UHGV virus genome: UHGV-0133195
Length of the DNA stretch: 31,518 nucleotides
Strand: one strand, 5' to 3'
From: a virus
Shown: positions 4,887 through 21,867 of the stretch, one piece after another
Position numbering within the stretch: position 1 is the stretch's first letter
Layout of the letters: each line of letters starts with the position of its first letter
The notes under the pieces: model-generated
The model's input: the letters and a program-made list of their open reading frames with translations, nothing else
What the model was told of the DNA's origin: nothing
Database searches by the model: none
Translations under genes and position numbers: made by a program

Positions 4887-7523
4887 ATGTCTGACGCCGC
4901 TTTTGCATGGTCCTGGAACGCGCCGCGCCCAGCTGTTGGCCTGTACACCTACGAACCGAAAAAAATCGCCCCGCTTGCCGGGGCGGTGGCGCATCATCCT
5001 GCCGTAAAAAAACACATCGATCACATCTTCAAACGCGCCGGTTACAACCCCGACGATGTTCGCGACCGTAACGCGCTTATCCAGGCGCTGGACAGGTACG
5101 AACCGTGCGGCCTGCCACTGGCCGCCCATCAAAATATAATCCGGCAGGAAATGGAAGCCGCCAAAGCTACGGCGGCAGCCTGGGCCAATACGCCGGAAGG
5201 TGTCGAAGCGCGTTTATTATCAGAGCCGTTCTTCATTCGTGAAGTCTGGCGCAAAAAAATTGAATGGTTACGGGCCAACCGTGAAGCCAGACACACCAAT
5301 GATTTTCTTATGGGGACCGTGAAAAAATCATTGCTGCGTCTTGATGTTGTGCGCACAAGGCAAGGTGTTTCGCCTGATCTCACCGGCGAACTGGCCGCGT
5401 ACTGGTTCGGGCGCTGGCAACGACTGGCTGATTTCACAAAGCGGGAGGCACTAAGCGCCGCTAATGAGATCGCCAGCCGCATGGCTGAAATGCTTGGGAC
5501 GGAATGCGAAGCCCTGGGGCGGAATGTTTCCGACATGAACGTCGAAGAACTGGACTGGCTTTATTGCCACCTGGGCCGCGAAATGCTGGCGCTTCGTATT
5601 GTGCCGCCTGCATGGTATGCGCCGTGGGAACGCGAGCGCATATGCACGGCCATTTTGCGTATGGCTTCGCCTGACTGGTGGGGGCGCAAAATCTGGCGCT
5701 TGCGTTGTGACTGGCGCGAGAACCAGCTGCGTGCTGTTGGCGCGGTAAATAAAAAAGCGCACGCCTACGTTAGCGCTTCCAGCCTGATCGAGTGGCAGGA
5801 ACAGCGCCGTAAAAACCGGGATTTTTTCAAAAGTCATGAACTGGTAGACGAAGACGGCAACGTTTCGTCGCTTGAGGAAATGATTAATAAATCCACGTCT
5901 AACCCGGCTATTCGTCGCCATGAGCTTATGGCCCGAATGGCTGGGGTTGAACTTGTCGCCCAAAGTCGCGGCGATGTTGGCATCTTCCTGACCATTACTT
6001 GCCCGTCGAAATATCACAGCAATATTGCGTCCGGCCACCATAACGCCAAATGGAATCATTCCACCGTCGCCCAGGCGCAGCGCTATTTATGCCGTGTATG
6101 GAACCGGGCAACCGCCAAACTGAAACGCGAAGATTTGCGCCCTTATGGCTTCCGCGTCGCCGAACCGCATCACGATGGGACACCACACTGGCACGCGTTG
6201 CTATTTATGCCACAAGAGCAGGTTAAAGCCACGGTTGCGATCCTTCGCGCCTACTTCATTGCGGAAGACCGCGACGAGCTGGGTCGCAATACCGGTGCTC
6301 GTTTCAAGTCAAAAAAAATGGACCCACGGAAAGGGTCAGCAACGGCGTATATCGCCAAATACATTTCGAAGAATATCGACGGTCACGCGCTGGCCGGTGA
6401 ACTGGACGACGAAAGCGGCAAGCCGCTGAATGAAACAGCCAAATATGCAATGGCCTGGGCGTCACTCCACCGCATCCGCCAGTTTCAGCCCATCGGACAG
6501 CCGCCCATATCGGTTTACCGCGAGCTGCGCAAACTGAGCAATCAGATCACGACCCGCCAGAAAATTGACAATACCTTCAAGCGCGGTGCGCCGTTGCTTG
6601 TGGATCCTGCAATGGATGCGGTTTGCGCCGCTGCCGATGTCGGGTGCTTTGCTACCTACATCATCCGCCAGGGTGGTGTTTTGATCCCGCGTGAAAACTA
6701 TGTCGTCCGTCTGGCCTATCAGCCAGCTGATGAAATGAATGCTTATTGTGAGATCCCCGAAAAGGTTTTCGGGGTCTGGTCGCCGCGTCTGGGTGATGCC
6801 TCCCGTATTTGCACCCGTCTGGTTAAGTGGAAAATCCGCGCCAAATCCAAAGCCACCACCGAGGCCAAAAACGGCCCCGGTTTGGGGGTTGCCCTTTTGC
6901 CGTCGCCAACCGGCGACGCTTGGAGTTCTGTCAATAACTCTACGGAAGACGAAAAAATCACCGATTTTTCACTGTCAGAAATGGCTGTGCCAGCTGACGG
7001 AGAGTTAAAGACAGAAGATTCAGACGATGAAATCGTCGATTTTGAAAATATGGACCAGCCAACGCGGCGCAAATTGATGCGGCGACTACGTGAAACACCA
7101 TTCAAAAGGCAGCAAAGCGGATCACCTTATGAGCCAGGGAGCGAATTAGATGTTGCCTGGCGTTCTGCCGTTGAAAAAACCGAGGCCAGATCGGCGGCTG
7201 ACAAGGCCAGGCGGGCAGCGCTTGCCCCTGCGGTTGCCAGTCTGCTGGCTGATGCGGCGTTGTGTTCGGTTGAGATTTCAGAGATTCAGGCCGTTTCGCT
7301 GTTAATGGGGAGCCGTCTGGAGATTGGCGGCAAAGTTTATCGGGCCAGTGCTGGCGGCCAGTTGATAACGCGTCAATTACCCGATGAGTCACGGACGGTG
7401 AATAAATTATGGGACCGTCTGCGGGATAACCACGGCATAGATGCCACGCGCCTGCGGTTTGATCCGGTCGGGGAGCATCAAAAAATGCTGGCAGGCGCGG
7501 AAGGTCGCCACCCAAAAGAATGA
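4887..7523 (+). CDS. A: Rolling-circle replication initiation endonuclease (P2 gpA-like, HUH superfamily)
   Basis: HUH motif PHWHALLF and paired catalytic tyrosines in AYIAKYISK; 878 aa, last gene of the early operon. Confidence 0.9.
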   Translation: MSDAAFAWSWNAPRPAVGLYTYEPKKIAPLAGAVAHHPAVKKHIDHIFKRAGYNPDDVRDRNALIQALDRYEPCGLPLAAHQNIIRQEMEAAKATAAAWANTPEGVEARLLSEPFFIREVWRKKIEWLRANREARHTNDFLMGTVKKSLLRLDVVRTRQGVSPDLTGELAAYWFGRWQRLADFTKREALSAANEIASRMAEMLGTECEALGRNVSDMNVEELDWLYCHLGREMLALRIVPPAWYAPWERERICTAILRMASPDWWGRKIWRLRCDWRENQLRAVGAVNKKAHAYVSASSLIEWQEQRRKNRDFFKSHELVDEDGNVSSLEEMINKSTSNPAIRRHELMARMAGVELVAQSRGDVGIFLTITCPSKYHSNIASGHHNAKWNHSTVAQAQRYLCRVWNRATAKLKREDLRPYGFRVAEPHHDGTPHWHALLFMPQEQVKATVAILRAYFIAEDRDELGRNTGARFKSKKMDPRKGSATAYIAKYISKNIDGHALAGELDDESGKPLNETAKYAMAWASLHRIRQFQPIGQPPISVYRELRKLSNQITTRQKIDNTFKRGAPLLVDPAMDAVCAAADVGCFATYIIRQGGVLIPRENYVVRLAYQPADEMNAYCEIPEKVFGVWSPRLGDASRICTRLVKWKIRAKSKATTEAKNGPGLGVALLPSPTGDAWSSVNNSTEDEKITDFSLSEMAVPADGELKTEDSDDEIVDFENMDQPTRRKLMRRLRETPFKRQQSGSPYEPGSELDVAWRSAVEKTEARSAADKARRAALAPAVASLLADAALCSVEISEIQAVSLLMGSRLEIGGKVYRASAGGQLITRQLPDESRTVNKLWDRLRDNHGIDATRLRFDPVGEHQKMLAGAEGRHPKE

Positions 7524-16565: not shown

Positions 16566-17708
16566 ATGACCTGGCCGAATGTCAACGTCAGTCAGAAAAA
16601 CCGCTTCAACGGCACAACGAACGACGTCGAGCGCGTCATCCTCTTTGTGGGTTACGGCGACACTAACATCGGGAAAACCCAGTCGCTGAATACCGACAGC
16701 GATCTGGATAAAGCCCTGGGCGACAAAGACAGCCTGTTAAAAAGCATTGTGGCCGCTGCGGCCAATAACGCCGGTCAGAACTGGTTTGCTTATGTGCACG
16801 TACTGGGGCAACCGGACACGGAAGCCGAGGGCTATAAACCAGACGAGGACTGGATGAACGCGGTCAAACAGGCCCAGAGCGTGGCATCCGTGGAAGGGAT
16901 CCTTCTGGCTTTTGATACCACCGACGCGGCCACCATTAACCGCGCAACGGAAATGCGCGTCACCTTACAGGCCAGTTTTGGGCGTTTTATCTGGTTTGCC
17001 CTTGCTGTGGGCGGGCCGGAAAAGGACGAAGCGTGGAGCGACTATGTGACGCGCCTGGCAACACTCCAGGACGGTATTGCATCGCCTGGGGTGCAACTGG
17101 TCCCGCGTCTGTGGGGCAACGAACCCGGCGTCCTGGTCGGTCGCTTGTGTAACCGTTCGGTGACGGTGGCAGACAGCCCCGCCCGCGTTGCAACCGGCGC
17201 AGTCACCGCGCTGGGGCGCGACGGCCTGCCGGTCGACGGGACGGGGGCAGAAATTGATCTGGCCGTGTTGCAGTCTTTGCAGGCAAACCGCTACAGCGTG
17301 CCGATGTGGTATCACGATTTTGACGGCATCTACTGGGCTGACGGTCGCACCCTGGACGTTGAAGGCGGTGATTATCAGGTGATTGAAAACGTGCGCGTGG
17401 TTGATAAAGCCTCCCGCCGCGTCCGTCTGCGTGCAATCCCCAAAATTGCCGATCGTTCACTGAACAGCACACCGGGCAGCATCGCCGCGCATGAAACCTA
17501 TTTCGGCAAGCCGCTGCGCGAAATGGCGATTTCAACCCAGATCAATGGCGTCGAATTTCCGGGCGAAGTGAAACCACCAAAGGACGGCGATATCACCATC
17601 ACCTGGACCAGTAACGAAGCGGTACAGATTTACCTTGTGGTTCGACCGTATGAGAGCGCGAAAGAAATCGGCGTCAGCATCGAACTGGACACCTCACTGG
17701 AGAGCTAA
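16566..17708 (+). CDS. Tail sheath protein (putative)
   Basis: 380-aa protein immediately upstream of a roughly 150-aa tube-sized protein, with chaperone and tape measure downstream; call by size and synteny. Confidence 0.5.
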   Translation: MTWPNVNVSQKNRFNGTTNDVERVILFVGYGDTNIGKTQSLNTDSDLDKALGDKDSLLKSIVAAAANNAGQNWFAYVHVLGQPDTEAEGYKPDEDWMNAVKQAQSVASVEGILLAFDTTDAATINRATEMRVTLQASFGRFIWFALAVGGPEKDEAWSDYVTRLATLQDGIASPGVQLVPRLWGNEPGVLVGRLCNRSVTVADSPARVATGAVTALGRDGLPVDGTGAEIDLAVLQSLQANRYSVPMWYHDFDGIYWADGRTLDVEGGDYQVIENVRVVDKASRRVRLRAIPKIADRSLNSTPGSIAAHETYFGKPLREMAISTQINGVEFPGEVKPPKDGDITITWTSNEAVQIYLVVRPYESAKEIGVSIELDTSLES

Positions 17709-17711
17709 TCA

Positions 17712-18167
17712 ATGACTGAACGTATTAGCGGTGGATCATTCGATGTGAACTACGACGGCATCATGATTCACGTCGAAAACGCCACCGTCACCATTACGGA
17801 CAACAGCGCGGTAGCACAAACCCGCGGCGTCCCGAACGGCCACACGAAAGGGTCAGTTTCGGCGGATGTGGAAGTCGAAGTCGATTCCCAGAACTTTAAA
17901 AAGTTTACCGCCGTGGCCCGTTCGGCAGGTTCCTGGCGAGCCATTCCGGCAAAGGACTTTTTGTTCTACGCCAACGCCGGGGACGACGAAGAAAAAATCG
18001 AGGTGTTTGGCTGCGTTCCGACGCTGTCTGACATCGTCAACATCAACCCCAACGAGGCCAGCAAAACCACGAAGAAAATTAAATTCATGGTGACAAGCCC
18101 GGACTTTGTCGCGATTGACGGCGTGCCGTACCTGTCAGCCCGTGACACTCGCGATCTGAAAGGCTGA
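17712..18167 (+). CDS. Tail tube protein (putative)
   Basis: 151-aa protein directly after the putative sheath gene; call by size and synteny. Confidence 0.5.
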   Translation: MTERISGGSFDVNYDGIMIHVENATVTITDNSAVAQTRGVPNGHTKGSVSADVEVEVDSQNFKKFTAVARSAGSWRAIPAKDFLFYANAGDDEEKIEVFGCVPTLSDIVNINPNEASKTTKKIKFMVTSPDFVAIDGVPYLSARDTRDLKG

Positions 18168-18171
18168 CACG

Positions 18172-18483
18172 ATGATGAACGGAGAAACGTCACTGCTTGA
18201 AAAGCTGTTGCTTATCGGGGCCGTGATCGGTCTGGGGCAACTGATGGTCAGCAATGAGCGAATCACAACCCGTCTGCTGGTCGGGCGGATGATTCTGGGA
18301 TCTGCGGTCGCACCGCTGGCCGCAATCCCGCTGCTGAAATTCCCCGATATGCCGGAACTGGTCGTCATTGGGCTGGCCTGCGCCCTGGGCATTCTGGGAA
18401 GTGCGTTTATTGAGGCGGGGTTAAAGCGCTGCCTGGACATGTATATCAAGCGATGGGGGAGCAAGCGCAATGAAACTGAGTGA
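18172..18483 (+). CDS. Holin (putative, three predicted transmembrane segments)
   Basis: 103-aa protein with three hydrophobic stretches and a charged C-terminus, directly upstream of and overlapping the endolysin gene. Confidence 0.5.
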   Translation: MMNGETSLLEKLLLIGAVIGLGQLMVSNERITTRLLVGRMILGSAVAPLAAIPLLKFPDMPELVVIGLACALGILGSAFIEAGLKRCLDMYIKRWGSKRNETE

Positions 18484-18808
18484 AAAACAGCAACTTTTCA
18501 CGGTGATGATCGCCAACCTGATTCATTTTGCCGAAGAAAAGGGCTATCGCCTGACGTTTGGCGAAGCGTACCGCACGCCGGAACAGGCCGCGCTTAACGC
18601 AAAAAAAGGGAGCGGTATTGCTAACAGCCTGCATACCCAGCGCCTGGCAGTGGATTTTAACCTGTTTGTTAATGGTGAATACCAGACCGACAGCGCCGCA
18701 TATCGCCCCCTGGGCGAATACTGGGAATCCATCGGCGGATCGTGGGGTGGCCGGTTCAGTAAGCCGGACGGCAACCATTTCAGTCTTGAGCATAACGGGG
18801 TTCGCTGA
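18470..18808 (+). CDS. Endolysin, M15-type zinc peptidase (L-alanyl-D-glutamate peptidase-like)
   Basis: Zinc-ligand pattern SLHTQRLAVD ... DGNHFS (His, Asp, His) typical of the small M15 peptidoglycan peptidases used as phage endolysins. Confidence 0.7.
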   Translation: MKLSEKQQLFTVMIANLIHFAEEKGYRLTFGEAYRTPEQAALNAKKGSGIANSLHTQRLAVDFNLFVNGEYQTDSAAYRPLGEYWESIGGSWGGRFSKPDGNHFSLEHNGVR

Positions 18809-19191
18809 TGCGCAATTTGCTGGGTCTTTTGCTGATTCTGGCCGCTGCAATGTCAGCGGGCTGGCAGGCGCATGACTGGCACGACGCAAAGCTGAAACTC
18901 GCTGCCAGTGAAGCGGCAGAACAAACGCGCCAGATTGTTGTTGAGGTGACGCAGCAGTCTGGTGAAGCGCTGGAAGCAAAACTCGCGGAGCTGAGGGCCA
19001 ATGAAATTCACACGGAACGGGTTATCCGCACGGAAACCATTAAGCCGGTTTTTAGCAACGTTTGCGCTTCTGATGATTACGTCCGGTTGTTCAACGAAAG
19101 TGCAGATCAAGCCGAACGAAAATTATCAGGAAAACCAGCTGACACTTTGCCCGGTCACGCTGCCACGTCTGGCCGGACCGACCGGAAATGA
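18808..19191 (+). CDS. i-spanin (Rz-like)
   Basis: N-terminal transmembrane segment (LLGLLLILAAAM) then a charged coiled-coil-like periplasmic domain; start overlaps the endolysin stop (ATGA); an overlapping lipoprotein ORF lies in another frame. Confidence 0.6.
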   Translation: MRNLLGLLLILAAAMSAGWQAHDWHDAKLKLAASEAAEQTRQIVVEVTQQSGEALEAKLAELRANEIHTERVIRTETIKPVFSNVCASDDYVRLFNESADQAERKLSGKPADTLPGHAATSGRTDRK

Positions 19192-19297
19192 CTTTGACGC
19201 GGCGCTGACAGCCTACCGACAGATGTATACCGACTGCGCCGCCCGACATAACGCCCTGGTGGGTATCATTCGACAACGTAAGGAATTAGCACAATGA
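19001..19297 (+). CDS. o-spanin (Rz1-like outer-membrane lipoprotein)
   Basis: Starts inside the Rz-like gene in a different frame with GAGGG Shine-Dalgarno; lipoprotein signal with lipobox LMITSGC. Confidence 0.6.
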   Translation: MKFTRNGLSARKPLSRFLATFALLMITSGCSTKVQIKPNENYQENQLTLCPVTLPRLAGPTGNDFDAALTAYRQMYTDCAARHNALVGIIRQRKELAQ

Positions 19298-19563
19298 GTA
19301 AACCGAAAAAAATCGCCATGACCGTGGCGGGCGTGAATCTGAGCTTTGAGCCGAATAAAACCGCGTTTAACAACCTGCTTAACGAAATGACCATGACCAA
19401 TAAGGTTGCCCCTATGGTGACGTATCTGGGCCGCATTGTTGATGCCGAGTGTAAAGAGTCGCTCAACAAGCTGATGGAAGATTATCCGGGTTGCGAAATG
19501 CAGATCGTCGAGAAGGTTAACGAGATTTACTCCCCCAAACTTGAGATCGAAGTAAAAAACTGA
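19294..19563 (+). CDS. Tail assembly chaperone (gpE-like), zero-frame product
   Basis: 89-aa ORF immediately upstream of the tape measure gene, ending in the slippery heptamer A_AAA_AAC directly before its stop codon. Confidence 0.65.
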   Translation: MSKPKKIAMTVAGVNLSFEPNKTAFNNLLNEMTMTNKVAPMVTYLGRIVDAECKESLNKLMEDYPGCEMQIVEKVNEIYSPKLEIEVKN

Positions 19564-19751
19564 CGGCGCGGGTGGCGGCCATTCGCAAGAATGCGCTTGA
19601 GCAATACCTTGCCCTGCGCCGCTACTACCTCCCGCACGAAGCCGACGACGAAGAAAGTATCGCCCGCGCCCTGTGGCTGGACGAATATTTCGCCCAGACC
19701 CGCGCCAGCAAGACGGCGGAAGGGATAGCCATCGCATTTAACGGAAACTGA
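19294..19751 (+). CDS. Frameshift-extended tail assembly chaperone (E+E'-like fusion product)
   Basis: A -1 slip at 19554-19560 adds 63 codons (LTARVAAIRKNALEQYLALRRYYLPHEADDEESIARALWLDEYFAQTRASKTAEGIAIAFNGN) with no ATG of its own. Confidence 0.55.
19554..19560 (+). other. Programmed -1 ribosomal frameshift slippery site (A_AAA_AAC)
   Basis: Canonical X_XXY_YYZ heptamer in the zero frame, directly 5' of the chaperone stop (19561-19563); the -1 frame is open from 19560 to the TGA at 19749-19751, just before the tape measure ATG at 19753. Confidence 0.6.
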
Positions 19752-19752
19752 T

Positions 19753-21867
19753 ATGAGCCACCTGGATTTTACCCTGAGCCTGATCGATAAGCTGACGCGG
19801 CCATTAAAAACGGCCCAGTCTTCGCTGTCCGGCTTTGCTGAAAAATCGCAGGCGTCTTTTACAAAAATCGGGATCGGTGCGGCGGCTGTCTGGGGCGTGG
19901 CGCAGTCTATCGCGGGCGTGGTGGGTCCGGCGTATGAGATGAACGCCGCACTTGCAGAAGTGGGTTCCAAAGGCGTGGCAGAGGACGCGCTGAAGCGTCT
20001 GTCCGGCGAGGCTATGCGATTCAGTATGCGCTACGGCAAAGGGGCCGTTGATGTGGTCCGGTCAAGCTACGCGATGAAAGGCGCAATGGCGGGCCTGTCC
20101 GATCTGGACCTGCCCCGCGTCACCATCGCGGCCAATACCCTGGCGGCAGGCGTCAAGGCCAGCGGCGAAGAGGCAGGCGAATACATCGGCGCGATGGCGT
20201 CACGTTTCAACGCGGAGTTGTCCAGTCTGGGCCATGTGCGTTTTGCCGAAGAGCTGGCAGGAAAAACCGCGTACATGGTGCAAAACTTCGGCGTGAAAAT
20301 GCAGACCATGCAGGAGCTTATCGAGGGGACGAAAAGCGCCGGTGCTGACTTTGGCGTCAGCCTGGATGAACAGTTCGCCGTCCTGGGTACGCTTTCGCGC
20401 ACGCTGGGTACTGAGGCCAGCGGGATCTACGAGCAGTTTTTACGCAGCGCTCCGGCTGCCGCTGAAAAGCTGGGGATGAGCTTTGTCGATGCCACCGGAA
20501 AAATGCTGCCGATGGGCGACATTCTGCAAAAACTCCAGAGCAAATACGGGCAGAGCATCGAAGGGAACGTCAAGGCACAACAGGCGCTGGACGCCGCGTT
20601 CGGTGGTGGTGCTGACGTTATCAAAAAGCTGTACGGCCAGCAGGATAAATTAAACCGCAGCATCACCGAGCTGGGCCGAAATGACGGGATGAAACGCGCC
20701 CAGGAAATGGCCGCACGAATGGCCGAGCCGTGGGAGCGTATCAAAGCGACATTCTTTGCCATTCGCGTGGCGATTGGTAACACGCTGATCCCTATCCTGT
20801 CGCCGCTGATGAACCGTATTGCCGACGTCGGGACAAAATTTGCCCGCTGGCTGGATATGTTCCCGAATATTGCCCGCTGGCTGGGTTACATCACCCTGGG
20901 CGTGCTGTCCTTCGGGCTGGCCGGGGCGGCGGTCAATATCGTGATGGGGGTCTTTGGTTTCACCATGATGGGGCTGGCCGCAATCGCTAAGGTGCTGGGC
21001 GGCGCATGGAAACTCCTGTTATGGACGCTCAACCTGTTGCGTCCGTCCCTGCTGACGACGCGCATCGGCCTGGCTGCATTGTGGATCCAGTCAAAATTGC
21101 TGGCGCTGTGGACGGGTATCTGCCGCATCGCGCTTGCTGCATGGAATATCGCGTTAAAGGCCGGGGCCATTGCCATGCGGGTTTACGGTGCGGCGACCAT
21201 GTTTGCCGGAGCGGCAATGCAATTCCTGATGAGTCCGATCACCCTGATTATTGCCGGGCTGGCGCTTCTGGCCGTGGGGGTCTGGTACGTCATCACTCAC
21301 TGGAAAGAACTGGCGGCAGCCGTCATGAATACGGCGGCTTTTGCCTGGGTGATGTCAGTCGCGGAACAGGTGGGCCAGGTGTTTGCGCAGGTCTGGCAGT
21401 CCATCACTGACGGCTGGGCCGTGGTGGTTGATTTCTTTGCCGGTCTTTCCCCGCTTGCCACCTTTGAAGGGTTCGCGCAGACCATCGGCGGGGTATTCAG
21501 CAAACTTTTTGACGTCCTCAAAAATACCTTTGCATCTACCTATAACTGGATTGTTGAGAAGCTAAACAAGATCCCCGGCGTCAACATCGACCTGAAAACC
21601 GTTTCGCCACCGTCAGCGGCTGCCGTTCCGGCAAACGCGGTCATTCCTGACAGTGCTGCAGGTTCGTCGAAGCTGAACAGCCCGTCCGTGCTGACGGGGA
21701 ACCGAATTAATGCAGACATCCCACGCGGCGGCCTGATGAGTCAGGTTAAAACCGACAGCAAAACCGCCGTTGATAACCGTAAATCGTGGGGCGATACCTA
21801 CATCAACGCCCCCAATGGAATCACCCCGGCCCAGTTGGCTGAATGGCAGGAGCTTAACGCAGGATGA
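19753..21867 (+). CDS. Tail tape measure protein
   Basis: 704-aa protein with Ala/Gly-rich helical regions and a long hydrophobic central segment; located after the chaperone frameshift pair. Confidence 0.85.
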   Translation: MSHLDFTLSLIDKLTRPLKTAQSSLSGFAEKSQASFTKIGIGAAAVWGVAQSIAGVVGPAYEMNAALAEVGSKGVAEDALKRLSGEAMRFSMRYGKGAVDVVRSSYAMKGAMAGLSDLDLPRVTIAANTLAAGVKASGEEAGEYIGAMASRFNAELSSLGHVRFAEELAGKTAYMVQNFGVKMQTMQELIEGTKSAGADFGVSLDEQFAVLGTLSRTLGTEASGIYEQFLRSAPAAAEKLGMSFVDATGKMLPMGDILQKLQSKYGQSIEGNVKAQQALDAAFGGGADVIKKLYGQQDKLNRSITELGRNDGMKRAQEMAARMAEPWERIKATFFAIRVAIGNTLIPILSPLMNRIADVGTKFARWLDMFPNIARWLGYITLGVLSFGLAGAAVNIVMGVFGFTMMGLAAIAKVLGGAWKLLLWTLNLLRPSLLTTRIGLAALWIQSKLLALWTGICRIALAAWNIALKAGAIAMRVYGAATMFAGAAMQFLMSPITLIIAGLALLAVGVWYVITHWKELAAAVMNTAAFAWVMSVAEQVGQVFAQVWQSITDGWAVVVDFFAGLSPLATFEGFAQTIGGVFSKLFDVLKNTFASTYNWIVEKLNKIPGVNIDLKTVSPPSAAAVPANAVIPDSAAGSSKLNSPSVLTGNRINADIPRGGLMSQVKTDSKTAVDNRKSWGDTYINAPNGITPAQLAEWQELNAG

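Follow-up and report, generated by a model that had tools for sequence, protein, structure and literature searches.

The question raised by this locus is whether an HP1-like phage's tail assembly chaperone gene simply ends at its own stop codon, or is also continued into a second reading frame that runs up to the tape measure gene. We analysed the virus genome UHGV-0133195, a stretch of 31,518 nucleotides (hereafter the window) that holds a complete HP1-like temperate myovirus with recognisable genes for an integrase, a gpA-like replication protein, portal, terminase, sheath, tube, tape measure, baseplate J/I and tail fibre. The chaperone gene, which we call G (19294–19563), encodes 89 residues; a −1 frame extension, T, occupies 19560–19751; and the tape measure gene follows at 19753–21867 (704 residues; Pfam PF10145 PhageMin_Tail, E = 2.9e-18). 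These features, like the heptamer, its adjoining stop and the downstream hairpin described below, lie on the plus strand. We concluded, with a probability of roughly 85%, that G and T are joined by a −1 ribosomal frameshift of the G/GT type, which would yield a 10.06 kDa G protein together with a GT chaperone of 152 residues and 17.21 kDa that has the predicted junction ...EIEVKK-LTARVAAI....

The open reading frame (ORF) at 19294–19563 ends in the codons GAA, GTA (19552–19554), AAA (19555–19557), AAC (19558–19560) and TGA (19561–19563). Because the gene ends GTA AAA AAC TGA, the heptamer A_AAA_AAC (19554–19560) stands in the X_XXY_YYZ phase and touches the zero-frame stop; the preliminary description of this locus had placed it directly before the chaperone stop, and we confirmed both its coordinates and its phase. 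The −1 frame is free of stops from 19545 to 19751. Translating it from 19560 gave 63 sense codons (19560–19748) and a TGA at 19749–19751, which bore out the claim of a 63-codon open frame. The distance from this stop to the tape measure ATG needed correction, being 1 nt (base 19752) and not the 2 nt that had been claimed.

Such an arrangement could arise by chance, if an A-rich gene end happened to coincide with an open −1 frame and 19564–19751 were an untranslated spacer. Canonical heptamers are indeed common in the window (105 on the plus strand), and a 63-codon run without stops is not extremely rare in GC-rich DNA. Seventeen canonical heptamers stand in phase in the ~8,640 codons of the window's genes. 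Among these, the heptamer at 19554 is followed by the longest open −1 frame (63 codons, versus 34 for the runner-up), and it is the only one that touches a stop. The comparative data speak more directly against coincidence: the codon-position substitution pattern of the extension, its Pfam match (E = 2e-22), and the retention of site and frame in 202/206 loci (all described below) effectively refute chance, which we consider an extremely improbable explanation. The runner-up is an in-phase CCCAAAA (within 7511–7523) located one codon ahead of the stop of the gpA-like replication gene (4887–7523).

Relatives of the locus were collected widely. Across the region of interest the window was 97% identical to SI7, SW3 and SW5, phages of Salmonella (Peduoviridae, Irrigatiovirus), and 96% identical to an E. 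coli prophage that was present in 18 of 5,426 complete E. coli genomes. The full set of 206 loci consisted of the window, 17 annotated relatives, 187 loci from scans of one genome per species, IMG/VR and metagenomes, and one locus (L206) from a contig look-up; dereplication below 90% identity left 71 representatives. The 17 annotated relatives were SI7, an E. coli prophage, Yersinia YenM_324, ESSI-2, ESSI2_ev129, phiO18P, A051, HP1, F108, PV94, K139, ValB1MD-2, SMHB1, PY3, yong1 and two Vibrio cyclitrophicus phages. All 17, at identities down to 33%, carried (G/C)TA AAA AA(C/A) with a stop immediately after it, with a −1 extension of 60–64 codons whose own stop fell −4 to +30 nt from the tape measure ATG. 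In the larger set, 202 of the 206 loci, and every one of the 71 representatives, had NTA AAA AA(C/A) with an adjoining stop, down to ~30% identity and in hosts that span Enterobacterales, Vibrio, Aeromonas, Haemophilus, Pasteurella and Pseudoalteromonas. Conservation of the extension's length and position had been put forward as a check on the proposal; we found 58–65 codons in the same position in the relatives, and a distance from extension stop to tape measure start of −11 to +37 nt (modes −4, −1 and +1). A tblastn search of 50,697 phage records, with the conceptual fusion as query, matched 67 of them, and all 67 were split into two frames.

Four loci departed from the canonical pattern. 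In locus L118 (IMGVR_UViG_2551306561_000001), a single nucleotide inserted right behind the site shifts the extension into the zero frame, downstream of the stop; this is either an assembly or sequencing error, or else the mark of a pseudogene or decaying prophage. Locus L171 (IMGVR_UViG_3300014705_000015) had AAAAATC in place of AAAAAAC, which could be a sequencing error or could reflect a decaying prophage. The other two were related to each other. Locus L073, from an Oceanospirillum metagenome-assembled genome, had GTA AAA AAG in the same register with its zero-frame stop 15 codons further on, and L206, 55% identical to L073, had GTA AAG with only three A's and again a distant stop. We sought more members of the L073 type by viral scan, metagenome scan and protein search, and L206 was the only addition.

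Codon choice at the site was far more restricted than in the rest of the same loci. Among the 71 representatives the codon before AAA was GTA in 53, ATA in 9, CTA in 8 and TTA in 1, whereas elsewhere GTA made up 12% of Val codons, ATA 6% of Ile codons and CTA 5% of Leu codons. Lysine at the site was always encoded by AAA, which accounted for 62% of Lys codons elsewhere, and asparagine was always AAC and never AAT, although AAT accounted for 44% of Asn codons elsewhere. None of the 202 canonical sites used a synonymous alternative (GTG/GTC/GTT, AAG or AAT), although such codons predominate in the rest of these loci. A T as the last base of the heptamer would be synonymous in both frames (AAT for Asn; TTA or TTG for Leu). 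This near-absolute conservation of the nucleotide signal bears the signature of selection acting on the RNA itself.

The extension shows the marks of a coding sequence. The 18 extensions (window plus annotated relatives) aligned without internal gaps from codon 1, and their pairwise differences at the three codon positions were 0.40/0.33/0.63. This pattern shows that purifying selection acts on T as a coding sequence, beginning at codon 1. A rival reading is that T is a separate small gene, with its own start at GTG 19572 or translated by termination-reinitiation after the chaperone stop. The preliminary description had stated that the −1 frame has no start codon of its own; this was not literally correct, since GTG 19572 (extension codon 5, 8 nt past the TGA) is in frame and is the reason that a mechanical ORF list reports a 59-residue ORF here. 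RefSeq and the Prokaryotic Genome Annotation Pipeline annotate stand-alone ORFs of 45–63 residues at this position in relatives, and the RefSeq record of SI7 takes the codon 5 GTG as its start. Yet the GTG is a poor candidate. It occurs in the window, SI7, HP1 and F108, but the E. coli prophage, at 96% identity, has GTA instead; in the window its anti-Shine-Dalgarno (anti-SD) energy is a weak −1.8 kcal/mol, versus −6 to −11 for neighbouring genes. In YenM_324, ESSI-2, ESSI2_ev129 and SMHB1 the earliest ATG, GTG or TTG appears at codon 38–52, past the conserved RRxYLP...ARAxWL core. Codon 1 of the extension in relatives is CTA, CTG or ATA, and termination-reinitiation there is therefore implausible as a general route. 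Database calls of 'DUF6890' or 'hypothetical' proteins in relatives of >77% identity used seven different N-termini (45–63 residues), so annotated starts vary even among near-identical phages. Conservation and a confidently predicted helix begin within residues 1–10, upstream of most candidate starts, and a separate gene would not account for the invariant heptamer or for the constraint on its synonymous sites. We consider a separate gene very unlikely. What stood of the earlier statement is its substance: judging from these relatives, the T frame lacks a conserved start codon.

The protein products point to the same type of system. The 89-residue product matched Pfam Phage_TAC_10 (PF10963, E = 7.9e-30), and the 63-codon extension matched Pfam PF21830 (DUF6890, E = 2.3e-22; 78.9 bits against a cutoff of 23.6). 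In PHROGs the two halves fell into separate families of 'unknown function', phrog_1214 for G and phrog_7050 for T (E = 4.8e-25), and NCBIfam held no model for either half. For structure prediction the G and T halves were modelled separately. The AlphaFold2 model of T was a four-helix unit with its first helix starting at residue 3 (predicted local distance difference test score 91.6), and it had no significant match among solved structures. By its Pfam family and by a predicted fold resembling the HK97 tail assembly chaperone, G is identified as a tail assembly chaperone. The fold comparison involved the HK97 protein (PDB 2ob9) and the prophage proteins 3fgx and 3klu (YqbN), both similar to tail assembly chaperones, at 10–15% sequence identity, and it is a comparison of proteins and not of recoding signals. 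Our results suggest that DUF6890, which Pfam lists without a known function, corresponds to the T portion of a frameshift product, and it would seem that DUF6890 and phrog_7050 both denote a domain reached by frameshifting and not a gene.

The lambda gpG/gpGT pair is produced by −1 frameshifting on the heptamer G_GGA_AAG. As in lambda, the locus consists of two overlapping ORFs just upstream of the tape measure gene, in which the short product would come from termination and the long one from a −1 slip close to the first ORF's 3′ end, and neither product need be a virion component. Unlike lambda, the heptamer here is A_AAA_AAC and touches the zero-frame stop, the phage is contractile-tailed with a lysis cassette between the tube and chaperone genes, and we detected no sequence similarity. 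The frameshifts of lambda G/GT and P2 E/E+E' are established and their arrangement is widely conserved (PMC5009743, PMC3091744). P2 is a contractile-tailed member of the same family, the Peduoviridae, and its products of 91 and 142 residues are very close in size to the 89 and 152 residues predicted here. The P2 extension likewise ends at the tape measure start, overlapping gene T of P2 by 8 nt, and a downstream hairpin has not been reported for P2 (PMC3091744). In contrast, the P2 heptamer is T_TTT_TTG and lies 20 nt upstream of the E stop, whereas A_AAA_AAC adjoins the stop in the window. Homology to P2 E+E' was not detected when an 11-sequence alignment of the fusion was compared by hhalign (probability 0.2%, E = 0.29), and no Pfam family of the P2 gpE type matched at E <= 0.01, PF10963 and PF21830 being the sole matches. 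Thus, the sequence-level hallmarks of the G/GT (P2 E/E+E') arrangement named in the preliminary description are present, without detectable homology to P2. Functionally and architecturally this is the arrangement of lambda G/GT and P2 E/E+E', and it is analogous to P2 E, not homologous in sequence.

We infer the following mechanism, and the inference extends to whether and how efficiently slippage occurs, to what the stop and the hairpin contribute, and to what the proteins do. Most ribosomes would translate 19294–19560 and terminate at TGA 19561–19563 to give the 89-residue G. A minority would slip back one base on A_AAA_AAC and read 19560–19748 in the −1 frame, producing the 152-residue GT whose C-terminal 63 residues would be the domain that Pfam calls DUF6890. 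Two modes of slipping can be envisaged. In the first, tRNA-Lys and tRNA-Asn would move back as a pair, from AAA_AAC to AAA_AAA, and the junction would read ...VKK-LTAR; in the second, with tRNA-Asn in the P site and a slowly decoded stop in the A site, only tRNA-Asn would slip, and the junction would read ...VKN-LTAR. The slip efficiency would set a fixed, low GT:G ratio. In lambda, G binds the tape measure protein and T recruits the tube protein, the ratio being fixed and low, at ~30:1 (PMC5009743). By analogy, G and the G part of GT would coat the tape measure protein in this phage, and the T part would recruit the tube protein.

The position of the stop deserves separate comment. Well-studied natural cases of 'shifty stop' frameshifting, prfB and antizyme, are +1 shifts. 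The present site resembles a shifty stop in that the slippery run is immediately followed by a stop, at which slow termination would leave the P-site tRNA time to realign, and TGA 19561–19563 is a candidate component of the signal. Frameshifting of this kind was described by Weiss et al. 1987 (as cited in PMC5009743), and a slow A site is of greater consequence for +1 shifts than for −1 shifts (PMC5009743). In each of the 202 canonical loci a stop directly adjoins the weakly shifty A_AAA_AAC or A_AAA_AAA, while the identity of that stop drifts among relatives. Just two relatives (L073 and L206) have an intrinsically shift-prone ...A_AAG site, and in these the stop is displaced by ~15 codons. 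A shifty-stop role may be read from this invariance. A stronger version, which we offer tentatively and consider rather doubtful, is that the recoding signal is a composite unit of slippery run plus stop, in which the termination rate at the adjoining stop would set the GT:G ratio. If true, a −1 'shifty stop' would exist in nature and be conserved, and the activity of release factors would feed physiologically into tail assembly; as a corollary, Pfam DUF6890 and phrog_7050 would not be independent proteins.

In E. coli dnaX, the heptamer A_AAA_AAG is accompanied by an upstream Shine-Dalgarno-like (SD-like) element and a downstream stem-loop. The window's heptamer belongs to the same A_AAA_AAN class read by tRNA-Lys, and the distant relative L073 has A_AAA_AAG at the homologous position; unlike in dnaX, the SD-like element ~10 nt upstream of the heptamer was not encountered here. 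A signal of the dnaX type would also have a stable stem-loop or pseudoknot 5–9 nt past the heptamer. Downstream, where the preliminary description had pointed to a possible stem-loop or pseudoknot, we predicted an imperfect RNA hairpin at 19564–19638 that may act as a 3′ stimulator. Its core stem pairs 19572–19581 with 19615–19625, its lower stem pairs 19568–19572 with 19631–19635, and its base pairs 19564–19565 with 19637–19638; the minimum free energy was −30.8 kcal/mol (z = −1.77). In the window, 98% of synonymous recodings folded less well than the native 60 nt after the heptamer (z = −2.3). When the 71 representatives were compared with dinucleotide shuffles, this stretch was again the more stable (mean z = −1.73). 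Compared with synonymous recodings the family mean was z = −1.59, versus −0.39 for control windows in the tape measure gene (Mann-Whitney p = 3e-9, for sequences that are not independent). Within the window's clade, third-codon-position entropy was 0.35 in the stem arms versus 0.81 elsewhere (p = 0.003), and the outer stems were 96–98% paired in 20 clade sequences. Hairpins were found in many other relatives in shifted registers (the sums of paired 0-based offsets were 45, 46, 50 or 51), and for that reason no single covariance model was built; an Rfam scan of the site gave no match. A stem-loop is thus predicted where one had been suspected, but with statistical support and without covariation or a family-wide structure, and we regard a stimulatory 3′ RNA structure as plausible but unproven.

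Several observations weigh against the frameshift reading. Covariation in the window-clade alignment showed no excess over shuffles despite 90% pairing, and RNAalifold found no or marginal structure in 17 diverse relatives and in 32 sequences of the window and Aeromonas clades, in a search that did not extend to pseudoknots. The SD-like 5′ stimulator was absent, the anti-SD duplex reaching −2.7 kcal/mol in the window (the family mean upstream of the heptamer was −3.1, versus −2.6 at random tape measure positions). Database homologues included no fused G-T protein, natural or annotated, only G proteins of 85–92 residues and T proteins of 45–63 residues, and our literature search found no protein, ribosome-profiling or reporter data on any HP1-like phage. 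In E. coli, A_AAA_AAC and A_AAA_AAA are far less shift-prone than A_AAA_AAG (PMC5009743); such weak sites do suit a system in which no more than a few percent of GT is required. Finally, the tandem-slip product ...VKK-LTAR is the same as the product of inserting one A.

This last point leads to transcriptional slippage, in which RNA polymerase would add one A on the A6 run (19554–19559) and a minority of mRNAs would join G and T in a single frame. The site is a homopolymeric A run (six A's here and seven in Vibrio-type relatives), productive transcriptional slippage is established in bacteria (PMC5009743), and the few percent of GT expected to be needed could be supplied in this way. Efficient bacterial slippage has been described for runs of ~9 A or T (PMC5009743), whereas the run is <=7 in all 202 loci and six in the window. 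Moreover, the base after the A run is only ever C or A and never T, though T would be synonymous in both frames, and neither the fixed phase nor the always-adjacent stop has a role in a transcriptional mechanism. The sister clade represented by L206, with GTA AAG, has a run of only three A's. In view of these observations, polymerase slippage is very unlikely, and a ribosomal −1 shift remains the explanation that we favour.

We regard the frameshift in this lineage as real but ordinary, a known phage trick that public annotations have missed. The extension is unannotated in HP1, HP2, K139, ESSI-2, YenM_324, PV94, SMHB1 and PY3, and a joined coding sequence (CDS) was annotated in none of the 17 HP1-like records inspected, whereas the P2 RefSeq record has one for E+E'. 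The gene model is therefore corrected for a widespread lineage that includes HP1, HP2, K139, F108, phiO18P, ESSI-2 and SI7, along with hundreds of prophages in Enterobacterales, Vibrio, Aeromonas and Pasteurellaceae. The 152-residue GT should be recorded as a joined CDS, and the 'DUF6890' or 'hypothetical' mini-ORFs with arbitrary starts should be retired. The open-access literature that we searched yielded no statement of this frameshift in HP1-like phages; the primary survey, that of Xu et al. 2004, may already list HP1, and priority cannot be claimed. Two aspects are of modest interest: heptamer and stop form an invariant unit, and what has been filed as DUF6890 can be read anew as the T domain of a product of frameshifting.

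The surrounding gene order is sheath (16566–17708), tube (17712–18167), a four-ORF lysis cassette, G (19294–19563), T (to 19751) and tape measure (19753–21867). A scan of the plus strand found no promoter or terminator between G and the tape measure gene. We considered whether the tape measure start might be coupled to GT translation by a weak Shine-Dalgarno sequence (SD). This idea was dropped because the tape measure SD is not unusually weak and did not differ from that at the G start. Two antisense ORFs on the minus strand, 19213–19737 (174 residues) and 19527–19970 (147 residues), overlap the chaperone, the extension and the tape measure start; they had no Pfam match and were rejected as spurious.

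The lysis cassette (18172–19297), whose location between the tube and G genes is a peculiarity of the HP1 lineage, comprises a holin (18172–18483; PF04550), an M15 endolysin (18470–18808), an i-spanin-like ORF (18808–19191) and an embedded ORF for an o-spanin-like lipoprotein (19001–19297; weak LysC match). The TGA of the o-spanin-like ORF overlaps the chaperone ATG in the sequence ATGA (19294–19297), which suggests translational coupling of the lysis and tail-chaperone genes. Lastly, in the locus of Yersinia phage vB_YenM_324 (NC_070917.1, our L003), the RefSeq label 'topoisomerase' at positions 1–196 is attached to a gene in the tail-sheath position, and looks like an annotation error.
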